The notes beneath the pieces are model-generated. The model saw nothing but the letters and a program-made list of their open reading frames with translations. It was not told the origin of the DNA and searched no databases. Below, piece by piece: positions 280 through 29,408 of a stretch of 32,973 nt of DNA. The position numbers and the translations under genes are program-made. The stretch's first letter is position 1. The number at the start of each line of letters is the position of its first letter. The stretch lies in IMG/VR virus record IMGVR_UViG_3300035521_000566. One strand, given 5' to 3'. Source of the stretch: a virus (taxonomy: Duplodnaviria; Heunggongvirae; Uroviricota; Caudoviricetes).

Positions 280-1011
280 TTATAAATCAGAACTATCTCT
301 ATGCAAATGTATGTGCATAATGCCAGCAACAAGTGCTGCAAATACTAAAATGTATAAAATCAAAGCAAATGGAACTGTCAACATAGCACCAGGAACAACA
401 AGACCACTGAATACAATTGCAAACAGATTAAAGCCAAAATGCAGTAACACTGGTATAAACAGTTTTCCTGTATAATCATAAATTAAACATAAAAACAGTC
501 CAAACAGAATACCTGTCGGTATATGCACCAGTGTACCATGTAAGATTGCAAATACAATTGGCGACGCAATATATCCAGCCAAAGGACACCACTTTTGCTT
601 TAAAAAGCCAAACCATAGTCCTCTTGTCATAACCTCTTCTGTAAGGGGTGCTATAAAAACAGAAATTACTGCATATAGCATAATATCTGAATTTGCAATA
701 TCCTGATAAGTATCAAAGCTAGAATCCCCTAACACATTGTATATCACGGTGGAAGTAATCTGACATGTAAACCATATAATACATAACGCTCCAACCAACA
801 GAATAACAAATTGTGTTATTGACTTTACGCTTGCTCTTCCGTCCATCTTATTAAATTTGCGAATCAAAACCAGTCCCAAAATTGCAACTGTTATATTATC
901 AATTACTGTTACAATCAGACTATTGCTTGTAAACAGGCTTAATATAATCGCAAATATAATATAAAAAGCTGTAACACCGAACGGAAGTACCAAACTTTTT
1001 AACTTAGACAT
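280..1011 (-). CDS. CPBP family (CAAX/Abi) intramembrane metalloprotease
   Basis: Multi-TM protein with EExxxRG, FAILHG and HxxxN (LLHFGFN) motifs. Confidence 0.9.
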   Translation of the reverse strand: MSKLKSLVLPFGVTAFYIIFAIILSLFTSNSLIVTVIDNITVAILGLVLIRKFNKMDGRASVKSITQFVILLVGALCIIWFTCQITSTVIYNVLGDSSFDTYQDIANSDIMLYAVISVFIAPLTEEVMTRGLWFGFLKQKWCPLAGYIASPIVFAILHGTLVHIPTGILFGLFLCLIYDYTGKLFIPVLLHFGFNLFAIVFSGLVVPGAMLTVPFALILYILVFAALVAGIMHIHLHRDSSDL

Positions 1012-2689
1012 TCTCTACCACCGTCCCTACGAAGTTAAATGTAATGTTACCATTAAATTCAGAGCTCTGAATATTGCCAACAATATAAACTTCTGCTTCA
1101 GAATCAGCAAGAGAAGCATATTGTGCCTGATTCCACAATAAAACCTCGAAACCATAGGCAAGCTTAATCTTAAGATGCTGCTTTGCAGAACCCATAACTG
1201 ACCACTCGCCCTCAGACGCATTGAACTTCAACAATGCCTGCGGAACTGGAAATCCCTTTCCGTATGGCTTATAGTTATTCACTTCACGAAGATATTCAGC
1301 AAATGTCCACAGGTCAATAACTGTATCACCAGTACCATCTGTTGCAATAACAAAATCAGGAACTGCTTCAACTATTTCTGTTACAGCTTTTACATCAGCT
1401 GAATCTTTCTTCACGAAAGCAACAAATGCATCAAGCTCACGCTTATCTGTAATACCAATGCCAAATGCCACATCGTGTCCACCTACATAAAACTTGTCAT
1501 GTACTCTAGTAAAGAATGGATACCACTCTGGAGAACGACCTGAACCATGATACTTGTTTCCATCGTCGTTTACCAATACAACCGTAGGTTCACCTGACGC
1601 AAGCATCAGCTTCTGAGCAATCAGACCTACAATTCCAAGTGGAGCAGTAGTAATATAAGCATATGGAGCATATGGCTGCGGAGTTGAAAGAATCTCCTGT
1701 ATATATTTCTGCTCTAATGCTTTACGCTCATCATTTAAAGCAATTAGATTACTAATCTTCTTTCTAGGCTCTGCATCGAAGAAAACACCGAATGCCTCGG
1801 TCATAGACGCACCCATTCTCTTAATGCTGTTAAATGTAGGAGCTAAATAATAGCCAAAGAACTGCTCGTCAATACTCTCAGAATTGCTAATCTTTCCTGC
1901 TTCAGCAAACGAACAAAGTGTCATAAACAGACCATAAAAAGCACGCCTGTAAATGTCACATCCTGGGATAGAATTTACGATAAAATCATTGCCATCTAAG
2001 TACACAAGTTTGCAAATGTCGATTGCGTCTCGAACCAGCTGTCTATTCTCGTATAATAAAGGCATCATATCAGAAACAGTACCAATTCCTGCAAATACAC
2101 GAAGCCTGTTAATCTGTTCTGACATAAACTTATCACAATAAGTATCTGCAAACTGCTGTAAAATCTGATAGAAAACATATGCTCCACAGATACCTGGGTG
2201 AGAATATGTTTCACCAAACTGCTTAGGGTCTACGACCACATCAGCGTTTAACTGATACTCTTGGATATGGTGGTCTGTAACCAAAACTTCGATACCAAGA
2301 GATTTTGCATAGTTAATACCATCTACACATGAAATACCAACATCACAAGTAATTATTGCTTCTGTTGTAGGATATTGTTGCAGCAATCTCTTGATAGTAG
2401 CCTTTGTAAATCCGTAACCATCATTAGGGTCAGGAATAAATAAAGACACATTAAACCCTAATTCTGCTAAACCTGAAAATCCTGTAACACCTGACATAAT
2501 TCCATCCATATCAAAGTCTGGAATAATAACAATCTGTTTGTGATAATCACGAATAGTCAACAAATGCTGACATAAAATGTCAGAATTCATTAAAACATCA
2601 TGTGCAGGGTTCTCAATTTCTCTTAAAAATGAATCTGTATACTGTCTATTTCTGAACATTGTTTCAATCAATTGATTCATAAAATACAC
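1004..2689 (-). CDS. recJ: RecJ-like ssDNA exonuclease (DHH/DHHA1)
   Basis: PDFDMDG, ITCDVG, TDHH, GTVSDMMPL, GSGRS and GGH motifs; PYGKGFP and HLK in the C-terminal OB region; 561 aa. Confidence 0.85.
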   Translation of the reverse strand: MYFMNQLIETMFRNRQYTDSFLREIENPAHDVLMNSDILCQHLLTIRDYHKQIVIIPDFDMDGIMSGVTGFSGLAELGFNVSLFIPDPNDGYGFTKATIKRLLQQYPTTEAIITCDVGISCVDGINYAKSLGIEVLVTDHHIQEYQLNADVVVDPKQFGETYSHPGICGAYVFYQILQQFADTYCDKFMSEQINRLRVFAGIGTVSDMMPLLYENRQLVRDAIDICKLVYLDGNDFIVNSIPGCDIYRRAFYGLFMTLCSFAEAGKISNSESIDEQFFGYYLAPTFNSIKRMGASMTEAFGVFFDAEPRKKISNLIALNDERKALEQKYIQEILSTPQPYAPYAYITTAPLGIVGLIAQKLMLASGEPTVVLVNDDGNKYHGSGRSPEWYPFFTRVHDKFYVGGHDVAFGIGITDKRELDAFVAFVKKDSADVKAVTEIVEAVPDFVIATDGTGDTVIDLWTFAEYLREVNNYKPYGKGFPVPQALLKFNASEGEWSVMGSAKQHLKIKLAYGFEVLLWNQAQYASLADSEAEVYIVGNIQSSEFNGNITFNFVGTVVENV

Positions 2690-2775: not shown

Positions 2776-2793
2776 TATATTTTAATAATAATT

Positions 2794-2834
2794 TTGAACA
2801 AACAGAGTCCACTGTCGTGGACTAAGAGCCTCTA
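2794..2834 (+). repeat. 41-bp hairpin-containing motif, copy A
   Basis: TTGAACaAAcagAGTCCACtgtcGTGGACTAAgaGCCTcTA, colinear without gaps with 4390-4430. Confidence 0.7.
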
Positions 2835-2898
2835 AAAGCTTACGCTAATTTTTTAAACAAAAATTTAACCTGAATCAATATATCTAAATCAGAAAGGA

Positions 2899-3198
2899 AT
2901 GAAAAGCATGACACGACAGGAACAAGCCCGTAAATTATGTGAAATGATTCACGGTCCCATTACTGACACTCCGAAAGCTTATCAGCATGAATCTCCGTAT
3001 ATGGAACAGTTATATCCAGTAAAGAAGATGAAAACAAAAGTAAGACAATTTACAGGAAGTCAGGACAGAGTTGCATTACGCATAGAATGCTTCATAAATG
3101 AAAACCAGAATAAACCTGGTTTTAATATTGTGAACCAGTCAATGTGTGCAGCACCAGAAGGCGTGACTGTGATGATAACTTACACAATAATGGAGTAA
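2899..3198 (+). CDS. Hypothetical protein (C-terminal half weakly resembles Cse60/DUF2758-like small proteins)
   Basis: 99-aa ORF. GAAAGGA abuts the first ATG, so the true start may be the ATG at 2908. Confidence 0.6.
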   Translation: MKSMTRQEQARKLCEMIHGPITDTPKAYQHESPYMEQLYPVKKMKTKVRQFTGSQDRVALRIECFINENQNKPGFNIVNQSMCAAPEGVTVMITYTIME

Positions 3199-5564: not shown

Positions 5565-7205
5565 ATGGGCACAACACAGAATGCCGTCCTTGCGTCTGAA
5601 ACAAAGAAATACCTTGAGAACCTTGACCCAAGCAAATCACCCGAAGAAATTGAATCAGATTTGTTAGACAACATTCAGCTGGCATTCGAAGTACATAATG
5701 CAACCGCTGATAAAGGCTATAAATGGAGAATACCCAACTCCTTGAGTCATGCACAAATTGCAGCAATCATGGCTAAGAAATACCCAATCTGCCGTATTGC
5801 CTGTGCTGGCTCTAATTCTGATACAGACTATGATTTGTTGGCAATTTATAAGACCGACGGTCCTGATGAAGGTATCTATGTTACCTCAGACGACGAACTG
5901 CGACGGATTGCAAGGGAATTTAATTACAATTTGACATCTAAAGATTTTAATGAAGTGATTATGGCTTTAAGAGATATGGTACCTCGTAAGAACCGTTGTA
6001 TAGACCCAGATTTGATTGCTGTGAACAACGGTATTTTCAACTATGATACAAAAACCTTACAGCCATTTTCTCCAGACCTTGTCTTCTTAACAAAATCCCG
6101 TGTCAATTATAATCCCAATGCAACAAACATTACAATACATAATAGCACCGACAATACTGATTGGGACATTGAAAGCTGGATTTCTGAGCTTTCTGATGAC
6201 CAAGAAATTGTGAATGTATTATGGGAAATTTTGGGGGCTATTATCCGACCAAATGTAAGGTGGAATAAATCAGCCTGGTTCTATTCTGAAACAGGTAATA
6301 ACGGAAAAGGAACACTTTGTGAACTTATGAGAGAGCTTTGTGGCTCAGGTGCATATGCATCTATTCCGTTATCTGATTTCGGCAAAGACTTTGTTTTGGA
6401 ACCGCTCACAAGAGCGACTGCAATCATCGTAGACGAGAATGATGTTGGTACCTTTATAGATAAGGCAGCTAATGTAAAAGCTGTTATTACCAACGATGTC
6501 ATTCAGATTAACCGTAAATTTAAAACTCCGATAGCTTATCAGTTCTATGGATTCATGGTTCAGTGCCTGAACGAATTCCCTAGAATTAAAGATAAATCGG
6601 ATTCCTTTTATAGAAGACAGCTGTTTATTCCGTTCGATAAGTGCTTCACTGGTCACGAACGAAAGTATATAAAGAACGACTATCTTCACAGAACAGAAGT
6701 TTTGGAATACGTTATGAAGCGTGTTCTTGAAATGAATTATTACTCGTTATCTGAACCAACTGCCTGTAGAAATATTCTGCAGGAATACAAAGCCTTTAAT
6801 GACCCAATCAGACAATTTTGGGAAGAAATATCCAATCAGCTTGTCTGGGATTTAGTTCCATACGGCTTTATTTATAGCTTGTATAAGTCGTGGTTCAAGA
6901 TAAATTCTCCATCAGGAGCTGTACAGGGTAAAAACACATTCGTTAATGATTTATTGAATGTAGTTAAAGACGACCCTGACTGGTATGGTGACAAAAGCAC
7001 AACTGTTAAAGTAGCTCACAGAATGGATAAACCTGAGCTGTTAATCAGTCAGTATGGCTTATCTGACTGGCAAAGAGCAGGCTACAAAGGCGGAGATGTA
7101 AGAATCATGTGTACGCCTGACCTTATGAATACACAAGTATTCAGAGGACTACAAAGAGTAGCATGTACACAGACTGCAGCTATCACTGTATCAAATGATG
7201 ATTAA
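5565..7205 (+). CDS. P4/D5-family primase-associated SF3 helicase
   Basis: D5_N-like LIAVNNGIFN...FSPDLVFLTKSRVNYNP, Walker A TGNNGKGT, Walker B IIVDE, motif C QCLNEFP, and RR..IPF. Confidence 0.9.
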   Translation: MGTTQNAVLASETKKYLENLDPSKSPEEIESDLLDNIQLAFEVHNATADKGYKWRIPNSLSHAQIAAIMAKKYPICRIACAGSNSDTDYDLLAIYKTDGPDEGIYVTSDDELRRIAREFNYNLTSKDFNEVIMALRDMVPRKNRCIDPDLIAVNNGIFNYDTKTLQPFSPDLVFLTKSRVNYNPNATNITIHNSTDNTDWDIESWISELSDDQEIVNVLWEILGAIIRPNVRWNKSAWFYSETGNNGKGTLCELMRELCGSGAYASIPLSDFGKDFVLEPLTRATAIIVDENDVGTFIDKAANVKAVITNDVIQINRKFKTPIAYQFYGFMVQCLNEFPRIKDKSDSFYRRQLFIPFDKCFTGHERKYIKNDYLHRTEVLEYVMKRVLEMNYYSLSEPTACRNILQEYKAFNDPIRQFWEEISNQLVWDLVPYGFIYSLYKSWFKINSPSGAVQGKNTFVNDLLNVVKDDPDWYGDKSTTVKVAHRMDKPELLISQYGLSDWQRAGYKGGDVRIMCTPDLMNTQVFRGLQRVACTQTAAITVSNDD

Positions 7206-12282: not shown

Positions 12283-12289
12283 AATACAT

Positions 12290-12363
12290 TGGGCTATCGC
12301 CAAGCGGTAAGGCACAGGACTTTGACTCCTGCATTTTCGTCAGTTCGAATCTGACTAGCCCAG
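12290..12363 (+). tRNA. tRNA-Gln (UUG), CCA not encoded
   Basis: Acceptor TGGGCTA/TAGCCCA, D arm GCCAAGCGGTAAGGC, anticodon arm CAGGA-CTTTGAC-TCCTG, T arm GTCAG-TTCGAAT-CTGAC. Confidence 0.95.
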
Positions 12364-12368
12364 TTTAA

Positions 12369-14034: not shown

Positions 14035-14889
14035 ATGAGCAAATTAACACTAACCAACGACAATTACTATTCTGCTGACGCTAATAAAGACTATATGTCT
14101 GTTAGTCAGTTTAAAGATTTCGCAGGGACAACCTGTCATTTAAGCTGCGAGGAAACAGCTTTATTAAAATATCAGGGACTAATCCCACAGTTTAAGTCTA
14201 CATCACTTTTAGTAGGTAGCTACGTAGATTCTTACTTTGAAGGCACTCTTGACGCATTCAAAGCTGATAACCCAGACATCTTCAAGAAGACTGGAGACAA
14301 GGGTTTAAAAGCTGAATATTTACAGGCTGAAGAAATTATCAAGCGTTTAGAGCGTGACAATATGTTTATGGACTTTATGTCAGGCGTCAAGCAAAAGATT
14401 ATGACTGCAAACCTGTTCGGTGTAGACTGGAAGATTAAAATGGATTCCTATCTCCCTAATGATAAGATTGTTGACCTGAAGGTCATCAAAGATATGAACC
14501 CTATTTGGAATCCAAGCACACACAGCAAAGTAGACTTCATCCATTTCTGGGGATATGACATCCAGGGTGCCATCTATCAGAAAGTAGTGGAACTTGTAAC
14601 AGGCTATCGTCTGCCATTCTACATTGCCTGTGCTACAAAAGAGAAGATTACTAAGTACGAGTTGATAGAAGTAACACAGCCTCACTTGGATGCAGCTTTA
14701 GAGTTCGTAGAACAGAGAATTCAGCACGTCGTTGACGTCAAGAACGGAGTCGTTCCTCCATCCAGATGTAACGAGTGTGCACATTGCTTAGGCAGCAAAA
14801 CAATTTTAGCACCTATCACAATTGACGATATTATGCCTGTTCAGACAAATAACGAAGATACAGAGTGGATAGACGACGAAGATGAATAG
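14035..14889 (+). CDS. PD-(D/E)XK nuclease, DUF3799/RecE-like, with possible Fe-S cysteines
   Basis: NYYS...YMSVSQFK, KIKMD...IVDLK and GYDIQGAIYQ motifs; N-terminal Cys plus C-terminal CxxCxxC. Confidence 0.8.
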   Translation: MSKLTLTNDNYYSADANKDYMSVSQFKDFAGTTCHLSCEETALLKYQGLIPQFKSTSLLVGSYVDSYFEGTLDAFKADNPDIFKKTGDKGLKAEYLQAEEIIKRLERDNMFMDFMSGVKQKIMTANLFGVDWKIKMDSYLPNDKIVDLKVIKDMNPIWNPSTHSKVDFIHFWGYDIQGAIYQKVVELVTGYRLPFYIACATKEKITKYELIEVTQPHLDAALEFVEQRIQHVVDVKNGVVPPSRCNECAHCLGSKTILAPITIDDIMPVQTNNEDTEWIDDEDE

Positions 14890-14895
14890 TATAAA

Positions 14896-15031
14896 TAATT
14901 AGTGGCGGAATAGGTAGACGCATAGTAAGGCTTTTATAAAGCAACAGATTGACGGGGTAGAGCACGGCAATACGCAGACGAGAGTAGTTAGTCTGGCTAC
15001 TCATGTGAGGTGACAAATCCTCACCTAATTA
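14896..15031 (+). ncRNA. tRNA-like ncRNA, copy 1 (no canonical anticodon arm)
   Basis: Acceptor TAATTAG/CTAATTA, Leu-type D arm TGGCGGAATAGGTAGACGC, ~80-nt insert, T-like arm GTGAGG-TGACAAAT-CCTCAC. Confidence 0.75.
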
Positions 15032-15060
15032 TAACAATACATATTTATCTAAAAGCAATA

Positions 15061-15204
15061 CGATTAGTGGCGGAATAGGTAGACGCTAATAAACGAATAA
15101 GCCTTAGTAGGAGCCGTGGAATAGCTATATGCATTATATTCCCTTGAATTGCGAGACCCTTTCTGAATCTAAGACATGTGGGGTGACAAATCCTCACCTA
15201 ATCA
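15061..15204 (+). ncRNA. tRNA-like ncRNA, copy 2
   Basis: Acceptor GATTAG/CTAATC, identical D arm, unrelated ~90-nt insert, T-like arm GTGGGG-TGACAAAT-CCTCAC. Confidence 0.75.
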
Positions 15205-15231
15205 TATAAAACATAAAAGGAGTGAAAAGTC

Positions 15232-15741
15232 ATGGCTGAATTTGTATCTGAAAATGAACTGGAAGACACAATTTTGTCACTAGCCAATTTCTTTGATAAA
15301 CAGTCAGACGAAAGAAACGCTGAGTTAATCAAGAAACTGCATGACGAATTCGATAAAAACGAAAGCTTATATGAATCCGAAATAACGCTGGCATTCTTGT
15401 ATTTCACGAATTTTGCAGCTATGCCGTGGTTTACTAAGAATCCTCAGGTAACAGACGGCTGGGATAAATCTACAATTCAGTATATCTATAACGGTATACT
15501 GCCACACTTCGTAAGAACTATCATCGAACAAAACGAAGGGACACCTTTCAGCGGTGATAAAGAAAGCTTTATTTTAAATAATATCAAGAAAGCTATTGCT
15601 TCAGGTGAAAATATATCGTTATATGACACATATCCAAATCAGCCCGAAAAACAGGCTTACTGGTCGCCAAGATGCTTCAAAGACACTAACGATGCCATAA
15701 AGCAATTTTGGGACTGGTACAATCTAAAAGAAAAGGAGTAA
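15232..15741 (+). CDS. Hypothetical protein
   Basis: AAGGAG RBS; 169-aa ORF. Confidence 0.75.
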   Translation: MAEFVSENELEDTILSLANFFDKQSDERNAELIKKLHDEFDKNESLYESEITLAFLYFTNFAAMPWFTKNPQVTDGWDKSTIQYIYNGILPHFVRTIIEQNEGTPFSGDKESFILNNIKKAIASGENISLYDTYPNQPEKQAYWSPRCFKDTNDAIKQFWDWYNLKEKE

Positions 15742-15747
15742 AAGATT

Positions 15748-17556
15748 ATGTCAAATAAATATAAAGAACAGGCTAAAACACTTGACGACGTATTGTATAA
15801 GTTAAATAAATACGGAAAGTGTGCCATTATCCGTCCAACAGGATTTGGCAAAACTTTTATATTAACTGAGCTTATTAAGCACTACAAAAAGGTGCTGTAT
15901 CTATACCCGTCTGCTGTTGTACGTGATACGGTCGTAAACCGTTATTATGATAGCATCTATGATGAGAATACAGACGACTACATTGACGAGGACGGTAATA
16001 GCATTGACCCTGAGACGGTTGACACATATATTGCTTTAAAGCAAATCAAAAATGTAGACCTTATGACCTATACAAAGCTGATTCGTCTTACAAACGAAGA
16101 ATTTGATGCTATGGACTATGACCTCATCTTATTCGATGAAGTGCATCGAGTAGGTGGTGCCAAGACTAAAATAGCCGTCAATCATCTCTTTGCAGCAAAT
16201 CCAACGGCTCACTTTGTTGGAGCAACTGCAACACCGACAAGAATGGACAACTTCGATGTTGTATCGGTCTTTTTCTCAGACATCATGACCTACACCTATA
16301 CACTGTTCGATGCGATTGAATCAGGTATGATTAAAAAGCCGAACTACTGTTACTGCACATATGATACTGAGAAAGACTTAAGAGAAGCAGCCCTCACTGC
16401 TGGTGAAAATCCAGATGACGACGACATAAAGACTATCTTAGCATCTAATTTAGTCGAGATTTCAAAGATTAACAATATGCCTAACATCATTCGCACTGTA
16501 TGCGATGAATATGCAGTAACAACCTCATATATGAAGTTTATCGCATTCTTCAGAAACATTCAGCATATGAATGAGTCGTTAGACCAGGTAGTCGACTGGT
16601 ATAAGCAGGCTTATCCAAACCATACTGTATCTGTACTTAAGATTTCCAGTCAGAACAATACAGAGAAAAACAACGTAGAAAAGCTCAATGACTTAAAGCC
16701 AGTTGATAATCACATTGACATCATTGCCTGCATTGATATGATAAACATGGGCTATCATGTTGATAACCTTGCTGGAATTGTTATGTACAGAGGTACTAAA
16801 TCAAATACAATATTCGTGCAGCAGTTAGGAAGAGCGTTATCTGCAGGTGCAAACAACTCTGCTATCGTATTCGATGTAGTAGATAATCTGCACCGTAAGG
16901 CAATTTATGAGCTTCGTGCTTCTCTTGTATCAAAGCGTACAAAGACTGCAAAATCAAAAAGAAGAGCAAAGTCTACATTCTATAAGCTTGATGAAGACAC
17001 ATTGAAGATAGTCGCCGTAGACAGTAAAGGTAAAAAGACTCCATCCATGTATCACATCGACGATGATACAGGACTTATATATGACAACAAGGGCAATTTA
17101 TCAACCCTCGTATGGGACTCTTCCACAAACGAGGTTTATGATAATGGTGCTGATACAGATAAAGACATCAATGTCATTACCAAAGAATGTCTAAATGCAG
17201 TCGGTCATATGGCTACTTATCGTGAGCTGATTGCCAAAGCTGTTGCAGAACCTATGACACAGCGTTGCAAATTTGCACTTGAGATGCATTTCAGGTCATG
17301 GTGCTTAAAGCACAAGATAAAATATCCGATTTCGGATTCTGACCTGGAAAAACTATATGGACGCTCCAAAAACGAGTTCTATGCTGAATTTTGTGACATC
17401 TTGCGTGATAACAAGATAGCATATCCATTACAGGACGCCAAAGAGCTTCTTGCTATCGGCGAGAATGATTCTACTGACGTGCCGCTAAGAATATGTGCAA
17501 AAGCCAGAAACGTTTCTATCAAGCAGATATTAGACGTGTTCGGCTTAACAGCTTAA
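15748..17556 (+). CDS. Superfamily 2 (DEAH/ResIII-like) helicase/ATPase
   Basis: PTGFGKT, FDEVHR, GATATPxRxD, DMINMGYH and QQLGRAL motifs. Confidence 0.9.
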   Translation: MSNKYKEQAKTLDDVLYKLNKYGKCAIIRPTGFGKTFILTELIKHYKKVLYLYPSAVVRDTVVNRYYDSIYDENTDDYIDEDGNSIDPETVDTYIALKQIKNVDLMTYTKLIRLTNEEFDAMDYDLILFDEVHRVGGAKTKIAVNHLFAANPTAHFVGATATPTRMDNFDVVSVFFSDIMTYTYTLFDAIESGMIKKPNYCYCTYDTEKDLREAALTAGENPDDDDIKTILASNLVEISKINNMPNIIRTVCDEYAVTTSYMKFIAFFRNIQHMNESLDQVVDWYKQAYPNHTVSVLKISSQNNTEKNNVEKLNDLKPVDNHIDIIACIDMINMGYHVDNLAGIVMYRGTKSNTIFVQQLGRALSAGANNSAIVFDVVDNLHRKAIYELRASLVSKRTKTAKSKRRAKSTFYKLDEDTLKIVAVDSKGKKTPSMYHIDDDTGLIYDNKGNLSTLVWDSSTNEVYDNGADTDKDINVITKECLNAVGHMATYRELIAKAVAEPMTQRCKFALEMHFRSWCLKHKIKYPISDSDLEKLYGRSKNEFYAEFCDILRDNKIAYPLQDAKELLAIGENDSTDVPLRICAKARNVSIKQILDVFGLTA

Positions 17557-20574: not shown

Positions 20575-21678
20575 ATGGCTAATCAGCACACAACGCAAAA
20601 GTGGATAGACCATAAGGGTAACGAATTCAAGTCTCTGTCTGCAATGGCACGATATTGGAACATACCGAATTCCACATTGCAAAACAGACTTGTTAGTCGA
20701 CATATGCCAATAGAACAGGCACTTACCCTGACATATGAACAAGCTAAATGCTTAAGCACACAGTGTACAGACCACTTAGGAAACATCTATCCGTCTAAAC
20801 AGGCTATGTGTGATGCTTATCATATTGATAGACAGATATACTTTGGCAGAATCGGTTTAGGCTGGTCGGTAGAAAAAGCACTTACTACGCCAGTCGATTA
20901 TACACCAAAGAACTCTAAAGCTATTATCGACCATCTTGGAAACGAATTCACTTCTATTTCTGATATGTGCAAATTTTGGAATATGACACGCTCTACTTAT
21001 AATGCCAGAATCAAGAACGGCTGGTCAATAGAAAGAGCTCTGACTGAACCTCAAAGACAAGTGAATATGAAACGTCAGAAATGGACTGACCATAAGGGTA
21101 ATGATTTTCCATCATTAAATGCTATGTGTGAGGCTTATGGTATTACCCATCACACATTTCATACCAGAGTTACTAAATTAGGCTGGTCAGTAGAGAAAGC
21201 ACTGACAACGCCTAATATCATAAATGCAACAGAATGTAGTGATAATATGGGACACACTTTTCCGTCTTTGACAGATATGTGCCACTATTATGGAATACCG
21301 CCCTACAGACTACAGGGAAAAACATTAACAGAAGAAAAGCTTCAAACCTGCTTGACATCACATTTTAAAGCCAATACGAAAGTAGGAGATGTTACAGTCG
21401 TAAAATGTATTGAATTTCCATATTATTTGATTAAAAAGGACTCACATGAGTTCGTCATTTCATTCGATGAGTTAGTACAAATATATCACAACGACAACTT
21501 TCATCCAATACCGAAAAACAAACTAAAAGATGAAAATCTTATCATCAAAGAATCAGTTGGTTTTCCGTATTATAATATCGAAATTAACGGAGAGTCTGCC
21601 GTGTGGGATTACTGGCAGATTATTCAATACAGACACGACTCAAACTTCGGACTTTCGTCACTTAGAAAAGGAGAATAG
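20575..21678 (+). CDS. DHxGN-repeat putative DNA-binding protein (5 repeats plus duplicated C-terminal FPYY domain)
   Basis: Five repeats, three ending GWS[VI]E[KR]ALT; two C-terminal FPYY...HxxNF units. Confidence 0.8.
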   Translation: MANQHTTQKWIDHKGNEFKSLSAMARYWNIPNSTLQNRLVSRHMPIEQALTLTYEQAKCLSTQCTDHLGNIYPSKQAMCDAYHIDRQIYFGRIGLGWSVEKALTTPVDYTPKNSKAIIDHLGNEFTSISDMCKFWNMTRSTYNARIKNGWSIERALTEPQRQVNMKRQKWTDHKGNDFPSLNAMCEAYGITHHTFHTRVTKLGWSVEKALTTPNIINATECSDNMGHTFPSLTDMCHYYGIPPYRLQGKTLTEEKLQTCLTSHFKANTKVGDVTVVKCIEFPYYLIKKDSHEFVISFDELVQIYHNDNFHPIPKNKLKDENLIIKESVGFPYYNIEINGESAVWDYWQIIQYRHDSNFGLSSLRKGE

Positions 21679-21679
21679 C

Positions 21680-22741
21680 ATGACAAAACATACGCTTTTT
21701 AGCCGATTAAGAGCACCAAAGACTTCAGACAGAATTTTGCTTCTGACACACACTGATATGGATGGAGCTGGAGCTGCAATCTTAGCAAAGCTTCTCTTTC
21801 CAAACTTAGAAATCAAGCATTGTTCAAACGGCAATATGTCATATGAGATTAAGAATGCCGTAATGAATGCTGAATTAAATAAGAATTTTGACATGTTTAT
21901 TGCATGTGACATCTCATGCAACGAGCATGACGCTGAGGTTATTCAGAAGTCACCAAATTGCAGCAAGCTTGTTGTATTGGACCACCATATGACAGCCTCA
22001 GACTTGAATGAGTATGCTTGGGCTTGTGTAACAAACGCTATACCAGTAGATTCTTACAGATTAACTGAAGGCTATGTCTCTGACAACTGCTCATCTTCAG
22101 GAACATCTCTTATGTATGATTATTTGGATTACTGTGGTCTTATCAAACCTAATATCCCACACCTGGACTTATGTAAAAAGATTGTAGACGCAATTGCTCT
22201 TTACGACACATGGGACTGGGCAAACATATATGACCGTGAATCAACAATTCCATACGAGCTGAATACATTGTTTGATATTTATGATACTGATGCCTTTGAA
22301 GACAGCATGATTTCAAAAATCAAAAATAATTTATGCAATACTATGCTGGATGATACAGACATAATGGTACTCGCTATCGAGCAGCATCGCATCAACAATC
22401 ATCTTGCTGGCGTAGAAAAAGGCTTTCACACAGGCAATCTCAAGATGAATAATAAGTATTATTCAGTCGTATTCTGCAGCAATGACAAGTATCTGAATAA
22501 CACATTTGACCATATGAAAGACATATATCCTGATTATGACTTATACATCATCAATTACGGCAGTGGTATCGGTGTCAGAGCCACAAAGCCAGACATCAAT
22601 GTTGGTGCAATTTTAAAGACCATCGGTGGCGGCGGTCACGCTGGTGCTGGTGGCGTCAAGATTTCACTCGAAAATCAGGCAGCTTATCTTGCAAACGCAC
22701 TTTCAGCTGACTTATATGTCGACGACCCTAAAGACAAATAA
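21680..22741 (+). CDS. DHH/DHHA1 phosphoesterase, NrnB/YngD-like nanoRNase
   Basis: THTDMDG, CDIS, LDHH, YDTWDW and GGGHAGAGG motifs; start moved to ATG 21680 by the AAGGAG RBS. Confidence 0.85.
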   Translation: MTKHTLFSRLRAPKTSDRILLLTHTDMDGAGAAILAKLLFPNLEIKHCSNGNMSYEIKNAVMNAELNKNFDMFIACDISCNEHDAEVIQKSPNCSKLVVLDHHMTASDLNEYAWACVTNAIPVDSYRLTEGYVSDNCSSSGTSLMYDYLDYCGLIKPNIPHLDLCKKIVDAIALYDTWDWANIYDRESTIPYELNTLFDIYDTDAFEDSMISKIKNNLCNTMLDDTDIMVLAIEQHRINNHLAGVEKGFHTGNLKMNNKYYSVVFCSNDKYLNNTFDHMKDIYPDYDLYIINYGSGIGVRATKPDINVGAILKTIGGGGHAGAGGVKISLENQAAYLANALSADLYVDDPKDK

Positions 22742-29222: not shown

Positions 29223-29359
29223 ATCAGTGGGTACATTTGCAACGACTAAGAGCGGTCTCATTGCTGGCGTTGCCCTGGCGAGAGAAGACGAGTGCAAGTC
29301 TCGTAAATCGGAAAAGCCGACAAAAGTAAGAATAGGTTCGAGTCCTATCGCCCACTGAT
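29223..29359 (+). ncRNA. tRNA-like structured ncRNA with two T-loop hairpins
   Basis: Closing stem ATCAGTGGGT/GCCCACTGAT; canonical T arm ATAGG-TTCGAGT-CCTAT; second arm ACGAG-TGCAAGT-CTCGT; additional GCAACG/CGTTGC and TCGG/CCGA stems. Confidence 0.7.
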
Positions 29360-29408
29360 TTTAATATAACCAAAATACTTAATAAAAAAAGAATAGAGGT
29401 GAGAAACC

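Follow-up and report, generated by a model that had tools for sequence, protein, structure and literature searches.

Tandem genes for probable non-decoding RNAs with a tRNA-Leu-like chassis and variable inserts, and their relatives in phages of Bacillota

The stretch of DNA analysed here, IMG/VR virus record IMGVR_UViG_3300035521_000566 (Caudoviricetes; 32,973 nucleotides, all of it hereafter called the window), reads from its gene content as the early or replication region of a phage or prophage. Between an exonuclease gene and a gene for a 169-aa protein of unassigned function, it contains two consecutive tRNA-shaped RNA genes, units 1 and 2, whose starts are 165 nt apart. A reading made from the sequence alone had placed both units where we find them, and had described them as a constant tRNA-like scaffold that does not decode and that carries a variable insert, or cargo. 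The units share the 5' part TTAGTGGCGGAATAGGTAGACGC and the 3' part CATGTG(A/G)GGTGACAAATCCTCACCTAAT. From 5' to 3', each consists of a 7-nt strand, UG, a D arm of the form GCG-GAAUAGGUAGA-CGC, the insert, AU, a 6-bp stem with the loop UGACAAAU, and the 7-nt complement of the first strand (Table 1).

Two changes at paired positions had been singled out in the sequence-only reading, and both are present: pair 2:71 of the terminal helix goes from A-T in unit 1 to G-C in unit 2, a compensatory change, and pair 4 of the T stem from A-U to G.U. At pair 1:72, unit 1 has T-A and unit 2 a C.A mismatch. The inserts bear no relation to each other, as had been stated: their local alignment score is below that of 472 of 500 shuffles. 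Neither cargo has a relative in the family sample described below, and their matches elsewhere in the window, antisense or sense, do not exceed in length those of shuffled sequences. Rfam 15, run on window positions 14700-15400, returned no family, RF00005 included, at the gathering threshold or at E<=10, and ARAGORN called neither unit, with or without its intron option; the units thus match no described Rfam motif, in agreement with the earlier reading, which had recognised no named family in them. At relaxed thresholds with introns allowed, ARAGORN gave only nonsense calls, at very low stringency.

Table 1. Features of the window and reference matches to the covariance model (R1) built for the family
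Feature	Position	Strand	Remarks
Window: primase gene	5565-7205		
Window: genuine tRNA-Gln(UUG)	12289..12364	+	2.5 kb upstream of the units, same strand; RF00005, 57.9 bits
Window: PD-(D/E)XK-type exonuclease gene (phrog_1227; DUF3799)	14035..14889	+	stop codon 7 nt before unit 1
Unit 1, tRNA-shaped RNA gene, 136 nt	14896..15031	+	R1 76.6 bits, E 7e-19
Unit 1, terminal helix, 5' strand TAATTAG	14896..14902	+	pairs with 15025-15031, 7/7
Unit 1, U8-G9 and Leu-type D arm (GCG stem, loop GAATAGGTAGA, CGC)	14903..14921	+	
Unit 1, insert (cargo), 81 nt	14922..15002	+	
Unit 1, cargo closing hairpin, 9 bp, GAGUAGUUA/UGGCUACUC	14982-15002	+	last 21 nt of the insert; predicted fold
Unit 1, AU linker	15003..15004	+	U at the putative U48 position (by tRNA-Leu numbering), partner of A15 in the tRNA-Leu core
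Unit 1, T arm (6-bp stem GTGAGG/CCTCAC, 8-nt loop TGACAAAT)	15005..15024	+	
Unit 1, terminal helix, 3' strand CTAATTA	15025..15031	+	
Spacer between units 1 and 2, 29 nt	15032..15060	+	A/T-rich
Unit 2, tRNA-shaped RNA gene, 144 nt	15061..15204	+	R1 72.2 bits, E 1e-17
Unit 2, terminal helix CGATTAG/CTAATCA			C.A mismatch at 1:72; 6/7 pairs form
Unit 2, D arm	15068-15086	+	
Unit 2, insert (cargo), 89 nt	15087..15175	+	
Unit 2, closing helix (G-C, C.A mismatch, CUUAG/CUAAG)	15101-15107 with 15169-15175		read from the sequence
Unit 2, AU linker	15176-15177	+	
Unit 2, T arm (GTGGGG/CCTCAC, loop TGACAAAT)	15178-15197	+	
Window: gene for a 169-aa protein, function unassigned	15232..15741	+	begins 28 nt past unit 2
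Window: helicase gene	15748-17556		next after the 169-aa gene
SPP1, family member	6647-6755		R1 76.3 bits
Grass, family member			R1 73.1 bits
phi3T, family member	50192-50326	-	R1 73.3 bits
T4 tRNA-Leu			R1 16 bits
T4 tRNA-Ser			R1 13.7 bits
T4 rnaC			R1 4.3 bits; R1 run without filters on the T4 tRNA region

The scaffold is not peculiar to the window. A scan for the T-arm pattern, with nothing else required, gave 66 metagenome loci and 17 IMG/VR loci; the D-arm motif lies upstream in 79 of the 85 T-arm matches of this unfiltered test, and in all 79 the flanking heptamers pair at 6 or 7 of 7 positions, with many different acceptor sequences, which is well above what chance would give. The same loci contained copies with other T loops, and a second scan with the 7-nt-loop version gave at least 119 loci. 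Parsing of the collected loci with a generic pattern, which demanded a paired T stem and six of seven acceptor pairs, yielded at least 187 units, at least 131 of them distinct, from two narrow patterns and in viral and metagenome contigs alike. The family counts used throughout (131 distinct and 114 non-redundant units) are those among the matches listed.

Position 55, in the T loop, is G in every member (tRNAs have U there). Most of the distinct units have the 7-nt loop UGCAAAU (79) or the 8-nt loop UGACAAAU (40), the others being UGUAAAU (7), UGCGAAU (4) and a single loop with an inserted 19-nt hairpin, found in the unit at 2601-2773 of locus L039. The 8-nt loop of the window is thus the common 7-nt loop plus one A, and the site of this A takes insertions of 1 to about 19 nt. 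The non-canonical T arm of the earlier description is therefore right as to the 6-bp stem, while its 8-nt loop is a sub-variant of the usual one. The AT linker is present in 127 of the 131 distinct units, and its T does not vary in the alignment A1 described below; inserts measure 26-223 nt, mostly below 110 nt, and whole units 80-280 nt.

The family is widely spread in phages of Bacillota. Large phage genomes carry 1-4 copies each, the hosts assigned being Oscillibacter, a Clostridiales isolate and the source of an Oscillospiraceae metagenome-assembled genome, to which the phages SPP1, phi3T and Grass, with one member each, add Bacillus. The covariance model R1 recovers both window units together with their relatives and separates the family from real class II tRNAs, as judged from the gap between their scores (72-84 bits for family members against about 14-16). 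Both window units also have the whole set of features by which membership was judged, namely the terminal helix, the UG, the D arm, an insert closed by a helix that starts with G, the AU and a 6-bp T stem with a UG(N)CAAAU loop. No R1 match was found in SPbeta.

The unit of SPP1 falls in the interval from gene 9 to gene 11, beneath a doubtful 'gene 10' annotated on the minus strand, and is placed just upstream of the scaffold and capsid genes. The published re-annotation of SPP1 names neither a tRNA nor a non-coding RNA gene and is silent on the region upstream of gene 11 (PMC6316719). The close relatives 049ML001, 279BB001, Ray17 and PM1 have no R1 match in the same spacer. Other acceptor/T-arm minihelices stand there instead; the spacer of SPP1 contains further ones too, and they are swapped between the relatives (for example ACGGAC...CGGGTTCAATTCCCG...GTCCGT; SPP1 X97918, locus L217, 6552-6914, and the spacers of loci L218, L219, L220 and L222). 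SPP1 and Grass also share a conserved hairpin, GGGTTCGGGGATAGCCCGGACGA, immediately upstream of the unit.

The chassis, as we call the constant part of the units, is under selection for its structure. In an alignment of 76 members (A1), with pairs counted on the chassis structure, standard pairs occupy 98.2% of the chassis cells, and double compensatory changes are seen at 13 of the 16 pairs, which bears out what had been claimed from the two window units. None of 500 shuffles matched the observed pairing and covariation, and sliding the partner strand by 1-3 columns left a pairing of only 34-46%. The figure of 98.2% is partly built in, since the parse demanded paired stems; the covariation and the 79 of 85 unfiltered matches are not. 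All seven pairs of the terminal helix covary, as do D-stem pairs 10:26 and 11:25 and four of the six T-stem pairs. The D arm is nearly invariant across the 76 members, and U8, A14, A15, G18-G19, A21 and the U that precedes the T stem vary little or not at all, which indicates that the tertiary core of tRNA-Leu has been kept. By comparison, genuine tRNA-Leu genes at the same loci have far more variable D loops, and their T loops are all of the ordinary UUC type. About 40 nt upstream of the unit of locus L016 (as oriented) lies a truncated chassis remnant, TTGCGGTGGCGGGCCGCAG, whose acceptor 5' strand and first part of the D arm are folded back on themselves, which suggests decay or a recombination scar.

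The anticodon arm is absent. At the canonical place, a 5-bp anticodon stem with a 7-nt loop is found in none of the 114 non-redundant units, and the number of units with at least four of five anticodon-stem pairs (8) is at chance level (8.1 expected from shuffles). The units had been taken for non-decoding derivatives of a tRNA, and this view is upheld by a Leu-type core that persists while an anticodon arm is found in none of them. After the D arm comes a linker, usually of 8-15 nt, that often begins with UAA, UUA or UAG and ends with A. A clear closing helix follows in 99 of the 114 units, its 3' strand ending directly before the AU linker and its first pair being G-C in 56 and G.U in 36 of the 99. 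A linker followed by a helix that ends just before U48 puts this helix at the place of the class II long variable arm, the anticodon arm being gone. The insert, said earlier to replace the anticodon and variable region, thus occupies mainly the place of the variable arm, with the short linker standing for the anticodon arm. In the shortest inserts, a linker of 5-7 nt and one 8-bp hairpin are all there is (L113, L118). Both window units fit the plan; in unit 1, the closing helix has G first and A before it, and ends right at the AU linker.

The division into constant scaffold and variable cargo, drawn at first from two units, holds across the family. Clustering of the 114 cargos by blast gives 95 groups, 85 of which have a single member. 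A single acceptor/T-arm combination, GTGCTTG/CAAGCAC, carries six unrelated cargos of 29-92 nt at loci that are syntenic, the upstream 100 nt being about 95% identical between phages. Conversely, related cargos are found in chassis with different acceptors, D stems and T loops. Chassis and cargo therefore recombine and assort independently, most simply, we infer, through the invariant D-arm and T-arm sequences.

Two observations bear on the cargos themselves. Seven base pairs of the cargo persist between L056 and L107 although both partners have changed. Unrelated Herelleviridae phages of B. subtilis share about 84% identity with SPP1 over the region of the unit and its cargo; the unrelated myovirus Grass has the same cargo as SPP1, and the acceptors of the two differ at most positions in a compensatory manner. 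The kept pairs and the conserved Bacillus cargo indicate that cargos are structured and selected. No Rfam family matched any of 17 long cargos of other members, and Shine-Dalgarno-like motifs are not enriched in the cargos (z from -0.6 to 1.2).

Many units lie in tRNA arrays. ARAGORN finds a tRNA gene within 300 nt of 47 of the 114 units, in all 47 cases on the same strand, and calls none of the family units themselves. An open reading frame (ORF) lies within 50 nt upstream of 46 of 106 units and downstream of 32 of 104. No family of linked protein genes within 3 kb is common to more than 10 of the 114 units, and the units that do share one are close relatives.

The neighbourhoods of the units contain other tRNA-like genes that we record in their own right. 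The commonest neighbour tRNAs are tRNA-Trp and tRNA-Gln(UUG), and unusual anticodons occur in the arrays near units (L011, 1865-1957 (-), and many other loci), among them tRNA-Ser(ACU), many tRNA-Ile(UAU) and one tRNA-Pyl-like CUA call. Full-model Rfam tRNA matches that span 103-140 nt (L208, 2156-2295 and 2435-2556; L039, 2117-2245; L056, 301-403) represent tRNA genes of these same arrays whose long internal insertions are either introns or giant variable arms. Finally, loci L116, L130, L137, L171 and L152 have a conserved element of about 59 nt, some 50-110 nt upstream of the unit. Its acceptor has 7 bp (ATCGCTG/CGGCGAT), its D arm is joined by a 10-nt linker to a canonical T arm, and an anticodon arm is lacking altogether. 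This element, missed by ARAGORN, is a second kind of anticodon-less tRNA-like gene.

In the window, the exonuclease gene, both units and the gene for the 169-aa protein are all on the plus strand, and no convincing promoter or terminator was found between the units and the flanking genes. The other genes identified in the window are those for an NS-type endonuclease, an HNH protein and a Sir2 protein. A 184-kb metagenome contig contains an identical copy of this stretch. A search based on the exonuclease gave a single distant locus, without a unit, and one based on the 169-aa ORF gave identical copies of the same element together with homologues in other contexts or elements, the latter without an adjoining unit. 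Compared with cultured phages by blastn, the window had one distant match only, of 290 nt and elsewhere in the query, and the units, both cargos included, had none.

A few further features of the window were noticed. Positions 29224-29360 (+), in the spacer upstream of the Sir2 gene, hold a third tRNA-like candidate of a different kind. Its terminal helix has 8 bp (CAGUGGGU/GCCCACUG), and its T arm, AUAGG-UUCGAGU-CCUAU, is canonical and immediately precedes the 3' strand; a Leu D arm is missing, neither ARAGORN nor Rfam (E<=5) nor R1 gives a match, and the minimum free energy (MFE) z-score is -1.9. Positions 280-2689 (-) and 21530-22741 (+) encode two RecJ-like DHH/DHHA1 proteins, of 561 aa and 403 aa, and an Rce1-like CAAX protease. 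The minus-strand left end of the window may represent another module or host DNA.

On balance, we think it probable that the units are genes for non-decoding scaffold RNAs that derive from tRNA-Leu and carry modular payloads. The chassis (terminal helix, U8, Leu D arm, U48 and T arm) would adopt the L shape of a tRNA with an intact elbow between D loop and T loop; a short linker would take the place of the anticodon arm, and the variable-arm helix would open into a structured module specific to each gene. The RNAs would be transcribed together with neighbouring phage genes or tRNA arrays, and may be excised by tRNA-processing enzymes; co-orientation with tRNA arrays is the sole pointer towards processing of the tRNA type. 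The closed terminal helix and the compact tRNA fold would protect the RNA. The constant chassis would serve as a handle and the insert would set what each RNA does, in trans, new combinations arising by recombination inside the invariant arms.

Several observations weigh against this interpretation, among them the ends of the units. Of the acceptor stem named in the sequence-only reading, the helix stands and the tRNA-like end does not. Pair 1:72 forms in 86% of units, and G1-C72 accounts for just 21 of 111; at base 73, these 111 units have A in 55 cases, T in 46, C in 6 and G in 4; and no family unit encodes a CCA. Moreover, positions -1 and 73 pair in 68% of units as compared to 43% in the control, in both orientations, and the next pair outward forms in 59% as compared to 47%. 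As a result, the terminal helix is often 8-9 bp long with no free discriminator, and such ends argue against standard CCA addition and aminoacylation. Pairing between leader and trailer also hinders bacterial RNase P, so that another processing route may be used. As for the cargos, their extreme diversity would equally fit cargos that do not matter, and the covariation within them rests on sequence pairs rather than deep alignments. The window inserts had been called self-folding; folding energy does not bear this out, the whole-unit MFE z-scores being weak (-1.7 and -0.2), and what stands is the closing helix conserved in the family-wide comparison.

The main rival explanation, which we consider unlikely, is that the units act in cis as a 'tRNA punctuation': the chassis would serve only to recruit RNase P or RNase Z (or RNase III, on the extended terminal helix) to cut polycistronic transcripts and thereby uncouple the stability or translation of the flanking genes, and the insert, on the anticodon side that these enzymes leave untouched, would be a tolerated filler. 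Such a role would suit units that sit in strings of co-directional genes, often within 50 nt of ORFs, like those of the window, lodged between the exonuclease gene and the next gene with neither promoter nor terminator, or that of SPP1, placed ahead of the scaffold and capsid genes. It would also suit hypervariable cargos and the lack of a partner protein gene. A mere filler, however, would not be expected to keep its helices by compensatory changes, nor to be conserved across unrelated Bacillus phages while the acceptor diverges. In addition, cleavage signals would be redundant in tandem units and in tRNA arrays, where cleavage sites are already there, and the D and T loops are far more invariant than in the phage tRNA-Leu genes of the same loci, which are cut by RNase P.

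The same invariance recommends an explanation that we likewise judge unlikely, namely that the RNA is an adaptor or decoy for a conserved host factor that reads the tRNA elbow (RNase P, the ribosome, T-box leaders, tRNA-modifying enzymes or a tRNA-targeting defence nuclease), the cargo tethering or distracting a second partner in the manner of a Y RNA. Indeed, the D and T loops stay almost unchanged in phages whose Bacillota hosts differ widely (Bacillus, Oscillospiraceae, rumen and gut phages), real tRNA-Leu genes vary at the same loci, and phages carry several units with different cargos. On the other hand, no gene for a Ro-like or other protein was found linked to the units, their topology is unlike that of YrlA and no target can be named; the cargos show no Shine-Dalgarno-like enrichment, and those of the window no antisense match within it.

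A chargeable mimic of tRNA-Leu is quite improbable. Here, the chassis would keep what bacterial leucyl-tRNA synthetase (LeuRS) reads, which is the core and elbow and neither the anticodon nor the variable arm, and the RNA, once CCA-tailed and leucylated, would act like tmRNA, serve as the substrate of a tRNA-dependent transferase, or titrate LeuRS or sensors of uncharged tRNA. U8, A14, A15, G18-G19 and U48 are invariant, the layout resembles the tRNA-like domain of tmRNA, and charging by E. coli LeuRS reportedly needs neither the anticodon arm nor the variable arm. But only about half of the units carry A73, the chief identity element for Leu, and in most units base 73 is taken up by pairing with -1; G1 is uncommon and CCA is not encoded. 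G55 and the 13-bp stack of acceptor and T stems also differ from elongator tRNAs, there is no tag-like ORF, and G3.U70 is lacking in the units of the window. Genes for a tRNA-Leu that has an intron or some other unconventional build, and that works once spliced, are essentially excluded, for although bacterial tRNA-Leu genes are known hosts of group I introns and the family's D arm is identical to that of the genuine phage tRNA-Leu(CAA) of locus L064, no unit has an anticodon arm or anticodon-stem halves, 26-nt inserts cannot house an anticodon arm plus an intron, the inserts are, as had been noted, too short (and too diverse) for group I introns, which need at least about 200 nt, no Rfam intron or ribozyme matches the window units or the 17 long cargos, the intron mode of ARAGORN finds nothing, and a T arm with G55 and a 6-bp stem is unlike that of a tRNA.

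If the units are indeed scaffold RNAs with modular payloads, one may go a step further and suppose, tentatively and with the chances clearly against it, that phages of Gram-positive bacteria run a modular RNA scaffold system, in which the elbow handle docks on a universal host machine that reads the tRNA shape (such as the ribosome, RNase P, T-box leaders, LeuRS or a tRNA-targeting defence enzyme) and each swappable cargo would have a different activity, for example as a decoy or inhibitor of host defences. Phages would then possess a fast-evolving RNA arsenal with a logic like that of the protein islands for anti-CRISPR and anti-defence functions.

Phage annotation usually stops at protein genes and a few tRNAs. 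To these the family would contribute structured RNA genes of a large class that has stayed hidden, since the standard tRNA and Rfam tools miss every member. The invariant chassis offers a simple handle for surveying cargo diversity across viromes, and the cargos are a pool of unexplored structured RNAs. Because SPP1 and phi3T have members, processing, partners and the effect on infection can be tested in Bacillus subtilis.

The family is large and apparently undescribed, Rfam 15 containing no model of it and no description having been found in the full-text literature searched; it falls within the known class of tRNA-derived non-coding RNAs. A 2023 catalogue of 10,006 candidate viral structured RNAs reports some tRNA-like candidates (PMC10690425) and could contain fragments of the family. 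The family shows the tRNA fold reused in nature as a carrier for other RNA modules, a principle hitherto known mainly from tmRNA, Y RNAs and engineered scaffolds, and it is with these, with tRNA-Leu itself and with two small RNAs of T4 that the units are best compared.

Class II tRNA-Leu is the evident ancestor. It has, like the units, a 7-bp terminal helix, U8, a 3-bp D stem, the loop GAAUAGGUAGA, G18-G19, U48 and a T arm, and the closing helix of the units occupies the position of its long variable arm. With their U8, A14, A15, G18-G19, U48 and 3-bp D stem, the units have the class II core in full; they do not have the canonical T arm (5-bp stem, 7-nt loop, T54-U55-C56). Unlike tRNA-Leu, they lack the anticodon arm and a conserved G1, A73 or CCA, and have a 6-bp T stem, G55 and optional T-loop insertions, and both RF00005 and ARAGORN are blind to them.

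The tRNA-like domain of tmRNA (RF00023) resembles the units in its acceptor/T-arm module, its lack of an anticodon arm and its helix in the direction of the variable arm with a large insert. By contrast with tmRNA, which is about 360 nt long, the much shorter units have a full D stem and neither a tag ORF nor a series of pseudoknots, and those of the window lack its G3.U70 alanine identity pair. Inserts as short as 26 nt cannot accommodate a tag ORF, and neither RF00023 nor the tmRNA search of ARAGORN made a call on the window units. A phage-encoded tmRNA (RF00023, 91 bits) does occur in locus L039, at 2788-3193 (+), immediately downstream of the unit with the hairpin in its T loop, and is clearly distinct from it.

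The species 1 and 2 RNAs of T4 (rnaC and rnaD) are, like the family, small stable phage RNAs of unassigned function, encoded in a tRNA cluster and on the tRNA strand, and rnaC has a T-arm-like hairpin at its end, followed by an acceptor-like 3' strand. They differ in having no Leu D arm and no UGCAAAU loop and in coming from a phage with a Gram-negative host, and we rejected them as members, R1 giving rnaC its low score (Table 1) and finding nothing above chance on the strand of rnaD.

YrlA-type Y RNAs are reportedly circularly permuted with respect to tRNA, their ends forming the Ro-binding stem at the anticodon side. The parts of the family, unlike those of YrlA, stand in tRNA order. What the two have in common is a non-coding RNA with a mimic of the tRNA D/T elbow, which would serve the family as a handle as it does YrlA (Chen et al. 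2014, PMC4201824). We found no TROVE/Ro protein among 30 scanned window ORFs, no Ro60/Rsr gene near units and no Rfam Y RNA match.

A further parallel in design is a laboratory construct. The engineered 'tRNA scaffold' of Ponchon and Dardel is said to rely on the tRNA body for folding, processing and nuclease resistance, and to carry the foreign RNA on the anticodon side. The family differs from it in using the variable-arm position, in its modified T arm and in the exchange of cargos by recombination, and would represent the same design principle in a natural and widespread form.

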